From: an uncultured Thermoplasmata archaeon
Lineage (GTDB): Archaea > Thermoplasmatota > Thermoplasmata > Lutacidiplasmatales > UBA184
Length of the DNA stretch: 64,000 nucleotides
Assembly (NCBI GenBank): GCA_963773945.1
Contig: CAVZDD010000005.1
Coordinates: 908,163 to 972,162 of the forward strand
Reading direction: 5' to 3'
A program made the position numbers and the translations under genes. Under the pieces are notes generated by a model. It was not told the DNA's origin. It saw only the letters and a program-made list of their open reading frames with translations, and ran no database searches. This document shows positions 7,852-18,601 of this stretch, piece after piece. Positions within the stretch are counted from its first letter, which is position 1. Every line of letters starts with the position of its first letter.

Positions 7852-8040
7852 CTCGACGCGGAGCCTCTGTCGATCGATCATCGGCACGCCAGTGCGGCGA
7901 CGCAACGTTTTTCGATTTTCTCCGCATGGTCATGGCCCCGATAGTCTCGTCTGAAGCCAGGTGCTCACAAGCTTGGTCTGGATAGACTGTTGGTACCAGG
8001 CCGGGCATTCGGTCGTGAACGGGCCTCGTGGGTATCGACG

Positions 8041-8403
8041 ATGCGAAGGTTCTATTCGCCCAGCCGCTTCGGGCCGCACGTGGTCCAGTCGATCACTACG
8101 ACCGAGTTGGCCGAGCTCCTGAAGCACGACACCAAGAGCATCGTACTGCTCGACGTGCGGGAGGATGATGAGCGGGCGGTTGCGCTCATCGAGCCCTCTA
8201 TCCACATCCCGATGAACACTGTACCGGACCATCTCGGGGAACTTCCCCGGGACCGCCGCGTCGTGGTCTACTGCCACCACGGAGGCCGTTCCTACGCCAT
8301 CGCCGGCTACCTCGAGACCGAGGGATTCACGAACGTATCGAATCTCACCGGGGGGATTGACGAGTGGTCCCGAATCGTCGACCCTTCGGTTCCTCGCTAC
8401 TAA
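8041..8403 (+). CDS. Rhodanese-domain sulfurtransferase
   Basis: Active-site loop CHHGGRS and typical rhodanese length; internal ATG of ORF 7990..8403. Confidence 0.7.
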   Translation: MRRFYSPSRFGPHVVQSITTTELAELLKHDTKSIVLLDVREDDERAVALIEPSIHIPMNTVPDHLGELPRDRRVVVYCHHGGRSYAIAGYLETEGFTNVSNLTGGIDEWSRIVDPSVPRY

Positions 8404-8535
8404 GGGTCGGATATCTCTCCGGCGTAGTCGTCGGAAACTTCCCGTTGTTTCCTGTTTTTCTATCGGACGACGAGCGGTGGAACCGTCCAAGGCCTCGCCG
8501 ATAGGTTTTTGACATAGGGGAGGGTCCTCGCGCGC

Positions 8536-9633: not shown

Positions 9634-9708
9634 GGGCGTGTGGCCTAGTCTGGATAGGGCATCGGGTTCCTAACCCGAGGGTCGGGGGTTCAAATCCCCC
9701 CACGCCCG
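9634..9708 (+). tRNA. tRNA-Arg (anticodon CCT)
   Basis: Hand-folded cloverleaf: acceptor GGGCGTG/CACGCCC (7 bp), D-stem GCCT/GGGC, anticodon stem TCGGG/CCCGA with loop TTCCTAA, T-arm GGGGG-TTCAAAT-CCCCC, discriminator G; no encoded CCA. Confidence 0.85.
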
Positions 9709-9856
9709 ATTGGATTCGAACCCCCGGGCGGTTTGACTTCATCCACACACTTTCGTCTGTTTTGTGCGGGGTGTCTGCTGCATGCAGGCGTTCAAGCGTT
9801 GGGTCGCCCGAACGGGTCTGCCCCCTCCGGCAAGGGGTGGTTATATTTCCCTGAGG
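9684..9856. repeat. Copy 1 of an imperfect ~180-bp direct repeat (tRNA-Arg 3' end plus downstream sequence)
   Basis: Roughly 70-75% identical to 13606..13790, e.g. ggattcgaacccccgggcggtttgacttc vs cgattcgagctcccaggcggtctgactctc, and ttcaagcgttgggtcgcccgaacgggtctgcc vs ttcaagttggtgaaacccgaacaggtctgcac. Confidence 0.5.
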
Positions 9857-9980
9857 TCGTCGCGCCGGCGCGATGCCCGCGCACTTCACACCTCGGTCAA
9901 CAAGGTCCGCGGCGTCGTACGGTATGCTGCCGAGGGGGTCACCGAGGTGGCGGCTACACCGAAAGGGAGGTCCCTGCCAG

Positions 9981-12575
9981 ATGAGCGTTCGAGTAGTTCT
10001 GTTCCCCGCCCTGTTGGCAGCTCTGGTCGTTGCCCTCCTTCTGGTCAGCGGAGCAGTGAACGTCGCAGAGCCGGGGACCCCCCCGTCGGGGCCTTCCTCG
10101 ATCTCGTCCCTTGCTTCCACCCCCTCTGGGAAGGTGGTAGTCGGTGCCTTCTCGTCGGCCGTTCCCATCTCGCCGGAATTCTGGGGCGTCAACGTGGTAG
10201 CGAACCGACCATTCACGAACACCGATGCCGCCGACATCATGGCCACTCCCGCGCAGTACGTCCGGTTTCCCGGGGGAATTCTCGGGGAGGAGCTCAACTA
10301 CACCTCCGGGGCGATTACCTTCACGAATGGGAATCAAAGCCACGCCGTAACTTCCGTGAAGGCCTTCGTCGCCTCGTGCGAAGTGATCGACTGCAAGGCG
10401 ATCATGCAGCTCCCTACGGAGATCGATTCCCCGTCGACGGCCGCGTACTATGCTAGCTACGTGGTCCACAATCTGTCCTACCAGCCTGCCTACTGGGATC
10501 TCGGCGACGCGCCCGCCGGCTGGACCCATTACGGCGTCCCGTGGTCTGAGTGGGGCACCGAGGGTGGGGGGAACACGACCCCCGCCCCCTTTGCCAACGA
10601 GGTCCACGCGTACATTCAAGCAATCCTGCTGGTCGACCCGACCGCCAAGTTCGTCGCCCTGGGTGCGGGACTAGCCCAGCCGGACTACTCGATGCCGTGG
10701 GTGGAGGAGCTGGCCAAGGTGGATGGGCATGAACTCTCCGGCATCTCGGTGCATTCCTACGTCCTGAAGGGTCCCCCTAACCCCACGGATGCCGAACTGT
10801 TCGCGAACCTTTCAGGGCCGTACTCGCTGCCCGACCAGATCTCAGCCGATCGCTCGTTCATCCAAACCGCGTGCCCGAACTGCACAAACCTCCAAGTGTT
10901 CGTCACTGAGATCAACGCGGCCGAGGATGGATGGTTCGAGACGCTCATCGGGACGTTCGCGGGCACGTTGTACCTTGCGGCCGAGACGGTCCAGGGACTC
11001 GCGCTTAACGCGACCAACCTGGACTGGTTTTGCTATGATTGCAACTACTCGGGTGCCTGGTCGGAGGCACCACAAAAGTGGCAGACGCAGTACTTCCTGT
11101 TCAGCGACATCATGACCCATCTCTACGCGGAGACCCTTCCCACGATCGTGACCGGTCCTTCGACACTCTACGGAATTGCAACCTACAACGGTTCCGGACT
11201 CGCTCTTTTGCTCGTGAACGTGAACACGACCTCGGCCGTGAGCGTCAACGTCGAGCAGTCGGGATTCAATATGGACCAGCCCGGCATCACGGAGTACTCG
11301 TGGGTAAATGGCTCCGAGCCGCCGACGAACTCCACGGTCACCCTCAATGGGACGGTGACGCTTTCGCCCATGTCCCTGATGCTGCTGACGACCGGGCTCT
11401 CGTCTGTCCCCCCGTACGAAGTGACGTTCGCAACAAACCCCTCGACATGTGGGACGATCACGTTCAACGGGACGGGTTACACGAACGGCCAGTTGGTTCA
11501 GGTCACGGCCGGTACGTATCCGGTCTCAGCAACGGCCTGCACGGGCTACACGCTCGAGAGCCTGGTCGGGAGCGGGTCGGTGACGGTGAGCTCGGGGACC
11601 GCGACGGTGAGCGGGGCCGGGGAGATCACGGCGACGTTCGTGCCGAATCCCCCGCCGACGTACACGGTGTCGTTCACGGAGACGGGCCTCCCGTCGGCCG
11701 CCCCATGGTCGGCGACGCTCGGAGGGATTCAACACGCCTCAACGACGAACACAATCACATTCACAGAGCCGAACGGGACCTATGCCTACACGATCACCGA
11801 CATCTCGGGCTGGCATCAAACGTCGCTTCCCTATACCGGAACAGTCACCGTTTCGGGAGTGGCCGTCACGGAGCCGACGTTTGTGTTCACCCAGGTCACC
11901 TACACGGTGGCGATCAGCGAGTCGACGTTGCCGTCGGGCCTGGGCTGGTCGATCGCGCTGAACGGGACTACGGAGTCGTTGACGACGAACGGCGGGACGG
12001 GCACGCTGACCTGGACGGGGTTGGCGAACGGGACGTACAGCTACAGCATCACGGACATTTCGGGCTGGCACCAGACCACTCTCCCCGACAGCGGCACGTT
12101 AACGGTGAACGGCGGGACGAACAGCATCAGCGGGTCGGGGATTGGCTACTCGAAGACGCTCGTCTACACGCAGGTCACCTACACGGTGACGTTCACGGAG
12201 ACGGGACTCCCGTCCGGTGCCGAGTGGTGGGTGAACCTCACCAACGAACAGACGTACAGTTCCGTGTCGACGACGATCACATTCAGTGAGCCAAACGGGA
12301 CGTACGACTACACGGTGGCGACGGAGGACAAGCCGTATGCGCCGACACCGGCGAGTAGTTCGTTCGGAGTGAGTGGGGCGTCGGTCAGGGAGTCGGTAAC
12401 GTTCAGCCTGATCACCTACACGGTGACGTTCACGACGAGCCCGTCGATGTGTGGAACGATCACGTTCAACGGGACACCGTACATGGATGGCCAGTCGGTG
12501 CTGGTGACGGCCGGCACGTATCCGGTGCTCTGCGACGGCCTGCACGGGCTACACGCTCGAGAGCCTGGTCGGTAG
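9981..12575 (+). CDS. Large secreted repeat protein, N-terminal portion: signal peptide, ~450-aa globular domain, then tandem beta-sandwich repeats. Truncated by a frameshift.
   Basis: ATG at 9981 preceded by aagGGAGG. Signal MSVRVVLFPALLAALVVALLLVSGA. Three ~80-aa repeats of type YTVTFTETGLPSG..W...L.G.......TITF.EPNGTYSYTV, and ~77-aa repeats of type YTVTFTTSPSTCGTITFNGT.Y.DGQSVLVTAGTYPVSA.ACT.YTLESLVGSGSVTVSSGTATVSGAG.ITATF. The ORF ends in the out-of-frame peptide LCDGLHGLHAREPGR*. Confidence 0.6.
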   Translation: MSVRVVLFPALLAALVVALLLVSGAVNVAEPGTPPSGPSSISSLASTPSGKVVVGAFSSAVPISPEFWGVNVVANRPFTNTDAADIMATPAQYVRFPGGILGEELNYTSGAITFTNGNQSHAVTSVKAFVASCEVIDCKAIMQLPTEIDSPSTAAYYASYVVHNLSYQPAYWDLGDAPAGWTHYGVPWSEWGTEGGGNTTPAPFANEVHAYIQAILLVDPTAKFVALGAGLAQPDYSMPWVEELAKVDGHELSGISVHSYVLKGPPNPTDAELFANLSGPYSLPDQISADRSFIQTACPNCTNLQVFVTEINAAEDGWFETLIGTFAGTLYLAAETVQGLALNATNLDWFCYDCNYSGAWSEAPQKWQTQYFLFSDIMTHLYAETLPTIVTGPSTLYGIATYNGSGLALLLVNVNTTSAVSVNVEQSGFNMDQPGITEYSWVNGSEPPTNSTVTLNGTVTLSPMSLMLLTTGLSSVPPYEVTFATNPSTCGTITFNGTGYTNGQLVQVTAGTYPVSATACTGYTLESLVGSGSVTVSSGTATVSGAGEITATFVPNPPPTYTVSFTETGLPSAAPWSATLGGIQHASTTNTITFTEPNGTYAYTITDISGWHQTSLPYTGTVTVSGVAVTEPTFVFTQVTYTVAISESTLPSGLGWSIALNGTTESLTTNGGTGTLTWTGLANGTYSYSITDISGWHQTTLPDSGTLTVNGGTNSISGSGIGYSKTLVYTQVTYTVTFTETGLPSGAEWWVNLTNEQTYSSVSTTITFSEPNGTYDYTVATEDKPYAPTPASSSFGVSGASVRESVTFSLITYTVTFTTSPSMCGTITFNGTPYMDGQSVLVTAGTYPVLCDGLHGLHAREPGR

Positions 12576-13135
12576 CGGGTCGGTGACATTCAGCTCGGGG
12601 ACCGCGACGGTGAGCGGGGCCGGGGGGATCACGGCGACGTTCACGGCGATTCCGTATACGGTGACGTTCACAACGAGCCCATCGACTTGTGGAACGATCA
12701 CGTTCAACGGGACGGCGTACATGGATGGCCAGTCGGTGCTGGTGACGGCCGGTACGTATCCGGTCTCAGCAAAGGCCTGCACGGACTACACGCTCGAGAG
12801 CCTGGTCGGGAGCGGGTCGGTGACGGTGAGCTCGGGAACAGCGACGGTGAACGGGGCCGGGGGGATCACGGCGACGTTCAAGGCGATTACTGTGCCGACG
12901 CATAAAGTCACGTTCACGACGAGCCCGTCGACGTGTGGAACGATCACGTTCAACGGGACGTCGTACACGGACGGTCAGTCGGTGCTGGTGACGACCGGTA
13001 CGTATCTGGTGTCTGCGACGGCCTGCACGGACTACGCGCTCGAGAGCTTGGTCGGCAGCGGGTCGGTGACGGTGAGCTCGGGGACCGCGACGGTGAGCGG
13101 GGCTGGGAAGATCACGGTGGCGTTCACGACCACTT
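12418..13135 (+). repeat. Three near-identical tandem ~243-bp units (period = one 77-aa protein repeat, plus linker in some units); a fourth diverged unit lies at ~11416..11650
   Basis: Units starting at about 12418, 12655 and 12903 are about 90% identical at DNA level (e.g. acgatcacgttcaacgggac recurs). Confidence 0.7.
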
Positions 13136-13326
13136 CCAGTTCCGCGGCCCCTGGATTTCTGGGCTTTTCCGGGAACCTGGGCTACTATCTCCTGGGGGGG
13201 ATTGTGGCGGCTGTACTGGTGGCGATTGTGAGTTTTGTGGCCGCCTACCGAACGAAGGGCAAGCCCTACGAGGGAGCTTCGAGGTCGGGCCCTGGAGGCA
13301 CTCCGTCTCCTTCAGGGCGACGGTAG
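12583..13326 (+). CDS. C-terminal continuation of the same repeat protein (two and a half more 77-aa repeats plus TM anchor), separated from 9981..12575 by a 1-nt insertion
   Basis: Starts inside a repeat (MTFSSGTATVSGAGGITATF...). C-terminal GYYLLGGIVAAVLVAIVSFVAAY followed by a basic tail. Confidence 0.5.
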   Translation: MTFSSGTATVSGAGGITATFTAIPYTVTFTTSPSTCGTITFNGTAYMDGQSVLVTAGTYPVSAKACTDYTLESLVGSGSVTVSSGTATVNGAGGITATFKAITVPTHKVTFTTSPSTCGTITFNGTSYTDGQSVLVTTGTYLVSATACTDYALESLVGSGSVTVSSGTATVSGAGKITVAFTTTSSSAAPGFLGFSGNLGYYLLGGIVAAVLVAIVSFVAAYRTKGKPYEGASRSGPGGTPSPSGRR

Positions 13327-13605
13327 GCAATCAGCTCGGTGGCGAGATCGGGTATCGGATTCGCATTAAGGAACGGGCCCTGCCGGAACGCTTCGGGTCG
13401 AAGAATGAATCGTGTCGGGAAGCGAACTGGCGGCTGATTCCTTACGTGCTCCGCCGGGCCTCAGTGTGCGCAATGGGCGAGTTCTGCGATCGCGGGCAAT
13501 AGTCAGATTACTTGGACCGATCTCTAACGACGGGGTTGCGTAATGGGAAGTTTTCCCTTGATTATGGCCGAACACTGATTCTGCCGCAAACGTCGATATT
13601 CGAAA

Positions 13606-13790
13606 CCCCAGGGGGTTCAAATTTCCCCAGGCCCGGTCCGATTCGAGCTCCCAGGCGGTCTGACTCTCCCGGACATGTTCTTCGATTTATTGCGGAGTGT
13701 CCGCGGCGTATCGACGTTCAAGTTGGTGAAACCCGAACAGGTCTGCACCCACACTCCGGAAAGGGGTGGGTGAACAACACGGTGCGGATT
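13606..13790. repeat. Copy 2 of the ~180-bp direct repeat; begins with a tRNA T-arm/acceptor-3'-half-like segment (ccagggggttcaaatttccccaggcccg) but no complete tRNA could be folded
   Basis: See copy 1 above; no matching 5' acceptor strand was found within 200 nt upstream. Confidence 0.45.
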
Positions 13791-14045
13791 TTGGAGGGAA
13801 CATTCGACACCAAGACGATGTCGATACGGGCGAAGATCTACCTCTGCACAAGCGACTCGAGCAAGCCCTAAAGCGAACCATCAGGTCCGTTTAGTGGCAA
13901 AGGAGGTTGCGAGTCGCACGCTTCCCGCACTCTTCACACGGGACGCCTGGCGCTGCGCGGCCCTGATCCTGCTTTCTGACCGGGTCGCACCGCGGTGAGG
14001 CCTGGGCGCAAGATTTACGTCCAAGACCTCTTACCGGGGCTCGGA

Positions 14046-14534
14046 ATGTTCGCAGGAGACGACCGGCCTCTTCGTGGCACTGCCTTGTTTGGATTGGCGG
14101 CGATCGCTGTCGTGCTCGGGATTGGACTAGTCGCCTTACCCCTCGCATCGGCTGAGTCGGCCATTATGACAACGTCGGTTTACGCGTTGCAAGTTTCCGT
14201 GAATCCATCGTCGCACACGTACACTGTCGGCCAATCGCCCGGTGTCACCGCGACGGAGAAGAACACGGGTTCATCCACCTTCAAGGCGACGGCCTGCATC
14301 GTGTCGGTCGAGGTGCCGGGATCGAGGACGTTCAAGTCCGGTGCTTGTCCCGGATTCAAGGCGTTCTCGGTGAAAGCGGGAGCCAGCGCGAGTCAGAAGT
14401 ATAGTGTGTATCCGTACAAGGTCACGAGCACGACGCCCAAGGGGACCTATCACCTGAAGGGATACTTCAAAGGGACCGTCGGCGGGAAGGCGTACGTCAG
14501 CAAGACTGTGTCATTCACGCTAACGGTCGCGTAG
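14046..14534 (+). CDS. Small secreted protein (signal peptide plus ~130-aa S/T/K-rich domain)
   Basis: MFAGDDRPLRGTALFGLAAIAVVLGIGLVALPLASA, then a beta-rich sequence; internal ATG of ORF 13995..14534. Confidence 0.45.
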   Translation: MFAGDDRPLRGTALFGLAAIAVVLGIGLVALPLASAESAIMTTSVYALQVSVNPSSHTYTVGQSPGVTATEKNTGSSTFKATACIVSVEVPGSRTFKSGACPGFKAFSVKAGASASQKYSVYPYKVTSTTPKGTYHLKGYFKGTVGGKAYVSKTVSFTLTVA

Positions 14535-15452
14535 CCGAAGGTCCGCCAGCGCGTCGGCAGTCGTACGAGAAAGGTGCGTTCGAGCCGGCGTCTGGACGAG
14601 CACTCCTGGACTCGAACGGCCGACCGAAGAGCGGGAACCGTTCGACGAGAATTCACGAGCACTTCGGCTCTATGTAAGGGGGCAGGGCCCGGGAACCCAT
14701 CAGAGAAGGGGCAACAACCCTTGGTGGATGCTTGTCCTCACGACGGGTGAACGTCGCTGCGGGGCTGGCCGGAATCGTCCGCCATGTAACATCTCGTAAG
14801 GACAAGTCTGCGGCGCCTAGATTGCTGTTAGATGGCGGAACGAGTCGCTTACGGTCTTGCCCGAACCTGTCGCCGTCGGGGGTTCGGTGAAACCGCGCTT
14901 GGGCCTCGCAACTTCCCCCGATCTGATGCCCCCTCGTTCTCAAACCTCGTGCCTAATCTAACCCGAGCTGATATTCCGCCATGACCAATCGCGGACGGAA
15001 ACCGCTTACTGCCTACGTGAATTCGGGCTCCGACGGGCCGGATTTGGGGTTTTTCCTCGGCGGAGAGCGCGCTACTCTAAACACGCAATGAAGATTGCCC
15101 CTTCTGGAGGCGCCGATCGCTCTGTTCGTCCGGAAATGGGTGGTCAAAGGAAGAATCCTCTTTAGGTCGTCTAGCCACGCGCATTGGACAACCGATCTTC
15201 CTTCTCCGCTCCGATGAATTCAGGGGTCGCATTCGCTCGATGAGTCCGCGCGCGGTCCACACTCGGTGCGAGGTCCAGGGAACCGGCCACTCCTTTCGGA
15301 CACTAGCGTGAGGTCGTACGCACCTGAAGTGAGAACTGCCCCCAGCGGAAGAGTTGCATTGGACCAAAGTATAAGCGAGGTCGCCCGCGGAGGAACCCTG
15401 CTGTGACGCAAGCGGATCTTCCGACGAGATCCCTGACCGTCGGGCTCTCACC

Positions 15453-16463
15453 ATGGCCCTTTATTTCAAACGGTTAGACGGAGCCCGCCGGACTCACGTC
15501 CGCACCCTCGCAGGACTTCTCGTCTCGATTACGATCGTAGCGCTGGTCTGGCTCGCCCTCGCCCCGGCTGTATCTGGCCCCATCGACCGCGCGGTGGTGC
15601 CGGCGACCTCCGCTCTGCCGACGGCGATCCACCACATCATTCTCATCATGATGGAGAACGAGGGTGTTGACCAAGTCTACGGAAAGCTACCCTACGAGAC
15701 GGGGTTGGCCAATACGTATGCGTGGGGCGGCGATGCTGTTAGCCACCCCGGAGCCAATGGTTACTACGCCCTCTGCCATCCTTCGGCGCCAAACTACCTT
15801 GGTGTTACCTCGGGCCAGACCTTACAGTGCGGGTCCGACGCCTTCCACCACTACTCTGTGCAGAACATTGGGCACGAAATGCAGACCGCGGGGATATCCT
15901 GGGTGGCGTACGAGGAGAGTGCGAGGACCGCCTGTCAGGAGACGAGCGGCGGGAACTATGCTGTCCCTCACAATCCCTTCCCGTACTACAGCGATCTCGG
16001 AGGGAATACGGCGGGTTCGGTTTGCATGAAACACGTGCTCCCCATCGCGAACCTCACCGTCAACTACCCGTACTCGACGAACCCCCCGGCGTTCACCTTC
16101 ATCGCGCCGAACCTCCTGGACGATGGCCATTCTTCCTCCGCGTCATTTGGGGACCACTGGCTCTCGACCTTCTTGCCGGAGCTGACGAAACAGGGCTGGT
16201 TCTCCAGCGCCGTGATCTTCATCGTCTACGACGAATCGTACGGAGCGAAGCCAAACAGCGGCTACGACGGCACCCGGGGCGGTCCGGTGTATATGGTCGC
16301 GGTGAGCCCTTTCACGAAAGGCATCGGTGCACTCCCGAACGATACCTCGCACTACAACATGCTCTCGACGTTCGAGTGGCTTCTCGGCCTACCCCCTACA
16401 GGCACAGGACACGACGGGACACCGAGCTTCCCGGCGATGAAGAAGCTCTTTAGCTTCTCTTGA
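15453..16463 (+). CDS. Phosphoesterase family protein (PLC/AcpA-like acid phosphatase fold), membrane-anchored or secreted
   Basis: N-terminal TM LAGLLVSITIVALVWLAL; HHIILIMMENEG matches the phosphoesterase-family metal-site motif (IVVLMqENRSFD); DDGH motif present. Confidence 0.6.
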   Translation: MALYFKRLDGARRTHVRTLAGLLVSITIVALVWLALAPAVSGPIDRAVVPATSALPTAIHHIILIMMENEGVDQVYGKLPYETGLANTYAWGGDAVSHPGANGYYALCHPSAPNYLGVTSGQTLQCGSDAFHHYSVQNIGHEMQTAGISWVAYEESARTACQETSGGNYAVPHNPFPYYSDLGGNTAGSVCMKHVLPIANLTVNYPYSTNPPAFTFIAPNLLDDGHSSSASFGDHWLSTFLPELTKQGWFSSAVIFIVYDESYGAKPNSGYDGTRGGPVYMVAVSPFTKGIGALPNDTSHYNMLSTFEWLLGLPPTGTGHDGTPSFPAMKKLFSFS

Positions 16464-16710: not shown

Positions 16711-17775
16711 CTATTCGCGGTTCGATGGGATCTGAGGGACAGTTGAGCCGGGCAAGGGTTCTCCTCCTCCCTTCGGAGTGGCCCCACCCTGGGGGGACAC
16801 GTCGATGACGGGCACGTTCGGGTCGCCGTCAGTAGTGGCGGGGGGAGCGACCCGAGCGGCGGAGAGGCGGAGATCCACTCGCTCCCGCGCGGCGGGAAGT
16901 GGAGCATCCACCAACTTTCGGGCGCCGGGTAGCCGGTAGAGTGAGTAGGAGGCCAACGCGACGACGATGACCGCAAGCACGCCGAAAACTAAGTCGCCTA
17001 AGCTCGACCCCACCCACTTCAACTTCACGATCACCTGCGAGAGACCAAAGGAGACCACCAGCCCGTCCATCGCCATAACGAACCGCGTGAATGCGTCTCT
17101 GGAGACGCGGCCCACCAACCAGGTGCCTGCCGGTACGCCGATCAGGACGGGTATGAGGAGGAACGGGATGAGCCCGAGCGAGGGCGCCGATATCAGGTTG
17201 GACCCGAGGAACGCCGTGAACAAGAAGTAGGTCGTCAGGGTGAGGCTCGACTCCGCAACCCGCACCTGCGCCAGAGTGCATCGGAACTCGTTCTTTGACA
17301 GGCCCTGGTTCCGGAAGAAGACGGCCAGCGGCGGGCCCGAGATCGTCGTTAAAGCGTACAGGAACCCGATCCCCGGACCGATTATCGACCCGCTGCGGCG
17401 CTCGTTGGTGAACGGCCGTCGGAGCCCCAACAGCTGGACGACCACCATCGGCAGGAGCACCACGTAGACGGCGACCTTGACGTCGTTGACCGCGAGGTAA
17501 CTGAGCCCCAGCGTACCGAGTAGGACTCCGGGCAGCAGCGTCGTTACGACGGGCATCGCCCGGCTCTTTGTCGCCGGAATGTATGCGCGTTCCCGGTACA
17601 GGAGCGCGACATTGACAAGAAGTTCGACGCTGACCACCGCGGGGTTCAGGACCTTGTTCGAGAACCAGAGAAGCGCGATCGGCGTGACGATGGAGGAGAA
17701 TCCGTAGCCGATCGCCCCGTTGATCAGAGAGGCACCCAGGGCGACGATGGCGAGCCAGATACTCGACAGGTCCAT
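16711..17775 (-). CDS. TauE/SafE (DUF81) family membrane transporter
   Basis: Starts MDLSSIWLAIVALGASLINGAIGYGFSSI; 7-8 predicted TM helices with G-rich helix starts typical of TauE; long hydrophilic C-terminal tail. Confidence 0.65.
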   Translation of the reverse strand: MDLSSIWLAIVALGASLINGAIGYGFSSIVTPIALLWFSNKVLNPAVVSVELLVNVALLYRERAYIPATKSRAMPVVTTLLPGVLLGTLGLSYLAVNDVKVAVYVVLLPMVVVQLLGLRRPFTNERRSGSIIGPGIGFLYALTTISGPPLAVFFRNQGLSKNEFRCTLAQVRVAESSLTLTTYFLFTAFLGSNLISAPSLGLIPFLLIPVLIGVPAGTWLVGRVSRDAFTRFVMAMDGLVVSFGLSQVIVKLKWVGSSLGDLVFGVLAVIVVALASYSLYRLPGARKLVDAPLPAARERVDLRLSAARVAPPATTDGDPNVPVIDVSPQGGATPKGGGEPLPGSTVPQIPSNRE

Positions 17776-18601
17776 GTTGGAGACCCGGATGGGGCCAGAG
17801 GTGGGCGCGCATACGTACTTACTGATATCGGTGCCCCACCGACCGAGGAAACAGAGCCCGGGAGGAGGGAGATGCCTCCATCTCACAGCGCGAGTGACCC
17901 GGCCAATTCCCGGAGCGCGACGGAGCCCCCAGCGGCCAAGAGAGCGGAGAGCGGTCATTTGTCCACGGGTCTCTCAGCCACCAGTTCTGGTTCTCTTCTC
18001 ACTCTCGATTTGTTCGAGCGAATCTTGCCAGGTCGGCCTAACTACGAAACACGTTGAAGTCGACGGTCGAGGGAGTCGCCACGCCTTCGGGGCCCACGAG
18101 GCGCTTTGAGGCAGAGGGGGGAGCCGCAAGTTTCAGCGAACTGGCCCTTGCCCCTTGCCGCGTGAGCGCGGTCAGATTAGAGCTGCTCGCTCGGTCCGGA
18201 ACGATCCTTGGCCTGGCTACCGAAAACGGGCTGCTTCCGTAACGTGGGGCCGCGTAGTTGACCGCTCGGACCCTTTTGTAAGCGCCGGGTCTTGTAACGG
18301 GAGGTCGGGCGAGACGAGATGCCTGAGGGTTTCGCGGGCATCGAAACCCACCTTCAGGCCGGATTCGACCCCCAACCGCCGCCGGTGCTTTGGGAACGGA
18401 GGGATCCTCTGACGGTGAATGGGCCAGGTCGGACCCACCGTGCCGGTGGGTGGGAAGGGGTGCGGGAGTTCAGTTTGGTTCGGGCCGCCATCTTGGATTC
18501 GCAACCCCCACTCCCCCGAGAGCGGAGTGATTCCAACCACGCGGGAGACGCGCCCGCAACTATTTCCGCTAAGGCTGATTTGCGGGCGTTAGGGGGAACA
18601 C

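Follow-up and report, generated by a model that had tools for sequence, protein, structure and literature searches.

The tRNA-Arg(CCT) gene and the direct repeat

We describe a tRNA gene and the sequence behind it in a stretch of 64,000 nucleotides from an uncultured Thermoplasmata archaeon (assembly GCA_963773945.1, contig CAVZDD010000005.1, positions 908,163 to 972,162), the whole of which is referred to here as the window. An intact tRNA-Arg(CCT) gene at 9634..9708 (plus strand; ARAGORN; Rfam RF00005, 67.9 bits) anchors the locus on its attB/attL (attachment site) side. The part of this tRNA that runs from its T-stem (5′ strand) through its discriminator base (9684..9708, plus strand), designated the core or O, begins the first copy of an imperfect direct repeat that consists of these last 25 nt of the tRNA and ~140 nt of downstream sequence (9684-9847). 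The second copy (13611-13778) lies 3.9 kb downstream and begins with GGGGGTTCAAATTTCCCCAGGCCCG (13611..13635, plus strand), a displaced tRNA 3′ end of attR type that is designated O′ and is identical, in the same orientation, to the core at 22/25 bases. The non-tRNA part, which makes up ~85% of the repeat, is called the flank (copy 1 at 9709..9847 and copy 2 at 13636..13778, both on the plus strand). A second conserved non-coding stretch, the P arm (13441..13610, plus strand), lies directly 5′ of O′, and a single gene for a secreted or surface protein, geneA (9981..13326, plus strand), occupies the space between the repeat copies. The patterns described below lead us to favor, with moderate confidence, the reading that a tandem array has formed at a tRNA hotspot and that 9634-13778 makes up one of its units, an integrase-less, cargo-only unit that carries the single gene geneA and resembles a cis-mobilizable element (CIME).

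A preliminary description of this DNA had reported the repeat, the tRNA-like start of its second copy, and the lack of an integrase between the copies, and all three are borne out. The two copies are 73.5% identical over 162 nt by BLASTN (E = 2e-19), with a mean column identity of 77% in a MAFFT alignment, and their local alignment score of 68 compares with a mean of 10.5, a standard deviation of 1.3 and a maximum of 15 for a background of 414 other 300-nt tiles of the window. An assembly artefact is ruled out as the source of the arrangement because the copies are too divergent. The T-loop reads TTCAAAT both in the tRNA of the window (9691-9697) and in the displaced fragment (13618-13624), and TTCGAAT in all eight related loci, which suggests that the two cores of the window recombined with each other within this lineage. 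A dispersed repeat, the interpretation that the preliminary description attached to the finding of many further copies, was considered and rejected, in that no third copy was found within the 64-kb window by a profile search (nhmmer --max) and a motif search, and a scan of a genome collection with a degenerate repeat pattern gave one match per related locus, one each in the loci labelled L006 and L008; divergent copies would escape this pattern, and the collection does not include the genome of the window. No homologue of the repeat was found in viral or plasmid DNA by three viral-contig scans and BLAST against phage and plasmid collections, apart from one unchecked match of the first viral pattern. 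In a metagenome scan the strict pattern had 0 matches, and the two matches of a gapped pattern, one to a coding region and one to a bacterial tRNA, were dismissed as chance.

Integration at the tRNA in related genomes

Syntenic loci were obtained through homologues of the DUF72 gene upstream of the tRNA (L016, L019, L020, L023, L026, L030/L031 and L033). The common order in these syntenic relatives is DUF72-PKD-rhodanese-PKD-tRNA-Arg(CCT), with the orthologous tRNA behind the same PKD-domain gene in L016, L019, L020, L023, L026, L031 and L033. What follows the tRNA differs across eight syntenic loci, being an integrase gene in L016 and L033 and other sequence in L006, L020, L023 and L031. Displaced core fragments in the relatives keep 13–25 nt of the tRNA 3′ segment; in L006 and L008 a short fragment of this kind (13-15 nt) is followed by the same ~140-nt flank, and in L020 four further tRNA 3′ fragments lie in tandem downstream of the tRNA. 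L016 and L008 are on one 357,695-bp contig, without overlap, and have in common an exact 19-bp direct repeat of the tRNA 3′ end, TCGAATCCCCCCACGCCCG. Reported lengths of archaeal att sites span this value. Genes for a Prim-Pol and a resolvase lie downstream of the integrase in L016. Because integrases follow the tRNA, because the 19-bp repeat joins L016 and L008, and because of the tandem fragments in L020, tRNA-Arg(CCT) is a genuine and repeatedly used integration site in this lineage.

Two further observations were made at these loci. An insertion sequence-type DDE transposase (DDE_Tnp_1) is encoded at 2789-4171 of L008, inside the presumed integrated element and upstream of the displaced tRNA fragment. 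Two contigs of assembly GCA_049800095.1 (L033 10845-11180 and L006 1-63) both carry the 3′ part of tRNA-Arg(CCT), followed by the integrase gene in one and by another insert in the other; either these are the two ends, attL and attR, of an integrated element, or the strains differ in whether they have it.

The integrase gene of L016 (13559-14959; protein P0195, 466 aa) starts 57 nt past the tRNA. Its product matches the integrase family phrog_1, and the motifs SGLRPG, YVLR, LGH and GLY can be recognized in it by eye. The best match of its profile to sequences in the PDB was a Pyrococcus XerA-type recombinase, a weak match, and an AlphaFold2 model (predicted local distance difference test score 82.5) had archaeal XerA as the top Foldseek match (E = 4e-7), with the integrase of phage Brujita, IntI, Cre, XerD and lambda Int included among further matches at E ≤ 0.001. 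From its modeled fold, then, the gene after the tRNA in L016 is a tyrosine recombinase. Its family has at least 281 homologues of ~450 aa, of which those that are named come from metagenome-assembled genomes (MAGs) of Thermoplasmata or from metagenomes, or are labelled integrase, and it has no coverage in Pfam or NCBIfam. A member of the same family lies directly after the tRNA in L033. The open reading frame (ORF) after the tRNA in L031/L030 was also considered as an integrase and was rejected, as it resembles one only in its first ~12 residues.

Conserved arms and recurrent single-gene units

Both flank copies of the window are recovered by nhmmer (9685-9847, E = 1e-42; 13612-13778, E = 4e-46), and the flank takes the position of a P′-type arm, directly 3′ of the tRNA or of its fragment. 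Six full flank copies from five MAGs, the two of the window and those of L006, L008, L019 and L020, have pairwise identities of 65–82%, and that of L026, the most divergent, is 55–62% identical to the others. Homology stops at a common point in all copies, and the genes beyond it differ. As a measure of background divergence, the neighboring DUF72 genes have 70–76% nucleotide identity, but only 44–53% at third codon positions, and because third codon positions and synonymous sites are thus saturated, neutral sequence would be expected to be unalignable at this distance. The flank, conserved despite this, must therefore be constrained or have spread horizontally. Of the genomes compared, that of L026 is the closest by DUF72 (80% amino-acid identity), yet it has the most divergent flank, and by these identities the flank tree is incongruent with the genome tree. 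Likewise, flank copy 2 is 82% identical to the copy of L008 and only 72% to copy 1 of the window, and for this reason the two copies in the window are not the duplication left by one recent integration. The claim of an integration footprint at the tRNA 3′ end, made in the preliminary description, accordingly stands in part: integrases after the same tRNA in L016 and L033, the 19-bp repeat of L016 and L008 and the fragments in L020 agree with it, whereas the simple attL/attR pair that had been proposed accounts neither for the 85% of the repeat that is not tRNA, nor for the P arm, nor for flank identities of 72% against 82%.

Several features stand out within the flank. The motif GGATTCGAACCCCCG at 9712-9726 of copy 1 is the inverted complement of the T-arm (inverted repeat I17). 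T-runs are conserved 45–60 nt past the tRNA end, and so is an imperfect palindrome at 9754-9790 in copy 1 and at 13680-13716 in copy 2, four of whose pairs persist, in at least one sequence, despite a change on both sides. These compensatory changes are suggestive as far as sequence comparison goes, with a covariation score that was reached by 28/500 shuffles. All of the genes immediately downstream of a flank copy (7/7), and likewise all cargo genes, lie on the strand of the tRNA. Conservation at 65–82% in spite of saturated synonymous sites, the uniform strand, the palindrome and the T-runs could all be because the repeat is a functional host element, such as a promoter, 5′ leader, terminator or insulator, or else a small RNA transcribed together with the tRNA or after it, that was duplicated for the gene behind it, with only an incidental link to the tRNA. 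We regard this as rather improbable. Apart from the tRNA, the repeat has no Rfam match at E ≤ 10, folding z-scores of the seven flank copies range from -1.4 to +0.8, and the covariation term of RNAalifold is unfavorable (+0.85), and on these grounds a structured RNA was rejected. No conserved TATA box or B recognition element (BRE) shared by the flank copies was found, the downstream genes are functionally unrelated, and the attachment of every copy to a tRNA 3′ fragment would be superfluous in a free-standing regulatory module. A role of the flank in regulation or as an RNA is, as such, compatible with a mobile unit and equally with the native downstream sequence considered below. A coding function was rejected for both the flank and the P arm, given one-base indels between copies and translated similarity far below nucleotide similarity.

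The same evidence bears on a more specific proposal of the preliminary description, that the copies are duplicated promoter or 5′ leader modules which co-regulate envelope proteins and lie ~130–200 bp upstream of genes for secreted proteins. The distance holds for geneA, where 134 nt separate the end of copy 1 from the start codon at 9981, and fails for the gene behind copy 2, where it is 268 nt to the start codon at 14046. The TATA-like box TTATATTT (9841..9848, plus strand), thought to be contained in copy 1, is situated where the homology ends or slightly beyond, and copy 2 has no equivalent of it. It is kept upstream of the geneA homologue in the related locus L035, where the repeat is lacking, and so is part of the geneA module and outside the repeat. 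In relatives the flank precedes genes for an ArsR-type regulator, a LipJ-like lipase/cyclase and a LUD-domain protein, and the proposal of co-regulated envelope genes thus lacks support in the form given; the uniform strand of the genes behind a flank copy (7/7) still speaks for a possible part of the flank in expression.

The second arm, P, was recognized through homology of 13441..13610 to L019 15681-15848 and L020 18321-18491, with pairwise identities of 57–62% and local scores of 33, 34 and 21 in the comparisons among window, L019 and L020, against a background maximum of 13–15. It ends in CGATATTCGAAACCCC, and its terminal CGATATTCGAACCCC is the motif with which the flank also begins, an inverse of the T-arm. 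Three ATTCGAACCCCC / GGGGGTTCGAAT motifs occur over P-O-flank. A hairpin occurs within the P arm at ~13540-13556 in the window, ~15776-15792 in L019 and ~18420-18436 in L020, in the forms GGGAA-GTT-TTCCC, GGGGG-GT-CCCC and GGGAG-TT-CTCCC, with compensatory changes that keep the pairing.

The position of the P arm also bears on the idea that 13611-13635 is the 3′ half of a degenerate, split or intron-containing tRNA, which the preliminary description had suggested looking for at 13440-13640. The T-stem of the fragment still pairs, using two G-U pairs, and GGGCCT, complementary over 6 nt to the 3′ strand of the acceptor, can be found by eye at 13447-13452. Against this, ARAGORN found nothing there even when the threshold was lowered and introns as long as 3 kb were allowed, the Infernal tRNA model had no match at E ≤ 10, the P arm has no likeness to the tRNA 5′ part, with the 65 nt upstream of the fragment matching it no better than shuffled sequence in all three loci with a P-O junction, and homologous fragments in relatives keep as little as 13 nt of the tRNA. 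The ARAGORN, Infernal and upstream comparisons effectively refute such a tRNA, and we consider it extremely improbable.

The two arms are parts of a recurrent architecture, in which the order is tRNA core, flank, one gene, P arm, tRNA core, with different cargo each time. Besides the window, where geneA is the cargo of the unit at 9634-13778, the architecture is clean in L019, where the tRNA and flank are followed by a gene for a LipJ-like lipase/adenylate cyclase (14227-15579), the P arm and O. Degenerate versions are found in L020, as O, a partial flank, a gene for a beta-helix protein, P arm and O, and in L026, as tRNA, a divergent flank, a LUD-domain gene and a partial P arm with no recognizable core. 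The cargo of L019 matches NF058673 (E = 4e-108, below the curated cut-off); most annotations of this LipJ-like type are in mycobacteria, a sign of possible gene transfer between domains. The unit of the window has att-type ends, with tRNA and flank 1 on the left and P arm and O′ on the right, and is without integration or transfer genes, which is the trait of a CIME.

We propose that the core of tRNA-Arg(CCT) is a target of tyrosine integrases, and that each insertion regenerates the tRNA and pushes a copy of its 3′ end downstream. The attachment site may be a composite of P arm, O and flank, ~330 bp in length, in which the P arm and the flank would serve as recombination sites. A circle of flank-geneA-P-O integrating at the tRNA, by recombination presumably catalyzed in trans, would give rise to tRNA(O)-flank1-geneA-P-O′; the 3.9-kb unit is made up of flank 1, geneA, P arm and O′, and in the order of events that we envisage an older unit (flank2-geneB…) would be left behind the newer one. 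The ~165-bp imperfect repeat would then be O and the right arm of two related attachment sites, and not the duplication from one event.

Several observations weigh against this interpretation. No integrase was found in the window with the profile of the P0195 family, nor with Pfam on the ORFs of the island that were scanned, and the integrase elements of L016 and L033 target the same tRNA core with arms unrelated to the P arm or flank. The loci compared yielded neither an empty site nor an excised circle, nor identical cassettes at two different places, the window shows no right end for the older unit that is presumed (flank2-geneB…), and the sample of the architecture is four loci, two of them degenerate. 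Pairing of the arms is not constant either, as no flank follows the P-O junction in L020 and L019. The O copies differ at 3/25 positions and the flanks at ~28%, and therefore the event would be old or the arms of different origins. The uniform strand of the genes behind the flank hints at a role for it in expression, instead of or besides recombination. Lastly, the flank stands directly on the tRNA in L019 and, in divergent form, in L026, as it does in the window, and so could simply be native downstream sequence.

This last point is the basis of the strongest alternative, in which the flank is the native chromosomal B′ downstream of the tRNA, outside any attachment site, and copy 2 (P-O′-flank2) is the attR of an old, decayed island that has lost its integrase. 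Copy 1 would then be secondary, acquired by capture of a donor tRNA-flank segment or by unequal or homologous recombination. The invaded loci L008, L006 and L020c each have one full distal flank behind a tRNA fragment, as would be the case for a displaced B′, and the integrase elements of L016 and L033 are without a flank. However, an extra event is needed to account for flank 1, and the alternative leaves unexplained the P-O junctions of L019 and L020 without a flank behind, the common end of homology with different downstream genes, and the failure of flank similarity to track genome relatedness. We judge it possible, at a clearly lower probability than that of a mobile single-gene unit.

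Gene content, comparable systems and significance

The cargo of the unit, geneA, was delimited from translations and contains internal repeats D1-D4. Its protein has a signal-like N-terminus, an N-terminal domain of ~470 aa, repeats of ~80 aa and a C-terminal membrane anchor, and there was no match in Pfam or NCBIfam and no informative match in PHROG. The gene reads as two ORFs, the cause of which is a one-base frameshift near 12527, where an extra base is found within 12520-12535 (GTG-C-TCTGCG) and a shift to frame +1 restores the repeat motif …SATACTGYTLESLVGSGSVTF…; geneA is either a recent pseudogene or bears an indel error from the assembly. Homologues number 74, those that are named being proteins from Thermoplasmata MAGs, and in L034 and L035 they occur in other genomic contexts. 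The copy in L035 is 85% identical in nucleotides, while the DUF72 protein of that MAG is only 77% identical, and its homology to the window begins at 9832, the end of the flank. Because a copy this similar stands in another context and homology starts at the flank boundary, geneA looks mobile from sequence comparison.

The first gene after flank copy 2, geneB (14046..14534, plus strand), encodes a small predicted secreted protein with an N-terminal hydrophobic segment in its translation, and has no family match and no homologue in the fetched loci. It is followed by a phosphoesterase gene and a TauE-family gene (16711..17958, minus strand; Pfam TauE), the latter a syntenic anchor and a boundary for part of the variable region. 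The TauE-family gene is shared only with L019, where its orthologue is found downstream of the tRNA locus, and with L034, where the orthologue lies beside the geneA homologue with 84% nucleotide identity. The region behind the tRNA is variable, with znuB at a distance of ~1.2 kb in L026 and of ~17 kb in the window. G+C content is ~60–64% over 7000-33000 of the window and ~65–70% on either side, as would fit an extensive variable island beginning close to the tRNA. All fetched relatives have a first PKD-domain gene between DUF72 and rhodanese that the window lacks, as seen over 7852-8535, with rhodanese at 8080-8400. The window encodes aRF1, and its closest relatives, where the source names them, are Thermoplasmata MAGs.

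Several known systems may be compared with this locus. It is like tRNA-gene islands and integrative elements, of the Islander type and in archaea, in having an intact tRNA at one end and a displaced 3′ fragment as a direct repeat at the other, in the integration into the 3′ part of a tRNA, in variable content among relatives, and in that related loci have an integrase beside the tRNA and a 19-bp exact repeat. The unit in the window differs from such islands in having no integrase, one gene, and a repeat that extends ~140 nt beyond the tRNA at only ~72% identity. Integrative elements have been described to decay to cis-mobilizable elements that keep flanking att sites, and to accrete in tandem at such sites (PMC5704250), a scheme with which our reading agrees. 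CIMEs related to ICESt1/ICESt3 in Streptococcus thermophilus (PMC5704250) likewise have att-type ends without integration or transfer genes and form tandem units at the att site of a target gene 3′ end, with integrase-bearing elements that use the same target in related genomes. The unit described here differs in its archaeal host, in its single gene, and in that no integrase-bearing parent with the same arms has been identified. Arrays of partial tRNAs at tRNA genes have been described in archaea and in Prochlorococcus (bioRxiv 10.1101/2020.12.28.424599 for Prochlorococcus). Among these, the tycheposons of Prochlorococcus (bioRxiv 10.1101/2020.12.28.424599) resemble our locus in forming variable islands by tRNAs in which successive integrations push older material inward, in partial tRNAs and degenerate remnants scattered in the island, and in niche-related cargo. 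Tycheposons are defined by integrase and replication modules, and the unit of the window has neither, but does have long conserved non-coding arms.

There is also a resemblance, and only that, to integron cassettes, in the single-gene units of the same orientation, the conserved site-like separators between them and the fixed chromosomal anchor, whereas the window has no IntI-type integrase by the anchor and no attI or Pc, and its core is derived from a tRNA with two arms and is not an attC hairpin. A bolder extension of our interpretation, which we hold to be unlikely, is an integron-like, tRNA-anchored cassette system in soil Thermoplasmata, in which genes for surface proteins or for enzymes, each bracketed singly by the ~330-bp P arm, core and flank, would be captured successively at tRNA-Arg(CCT), exchanged between lineages and mobilized in trans by the lineage's own ~450-aa integrases, with the flank supplying expression signals. 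Such signals would explain the uniform orientation of the genes.

Should the arms be recombination sites, they could, together with the integrase, be developed into a tool for site-specific integration in a group lacking any genetic system; otherwise the flank is a conserved non-coding element that still calls for an explanation. The two conserved non-coding arms are search handles for mapping the flow of cargo among these archaea, and the integrases at the tRNA belong to a large family that has been overlooked by standard domain libraries. For the biology of this uncultured soil Thermoplasmata lineage, tRNA-Arg(CCT) is a hotspot that turns over genes for surface proteins and enzymes.

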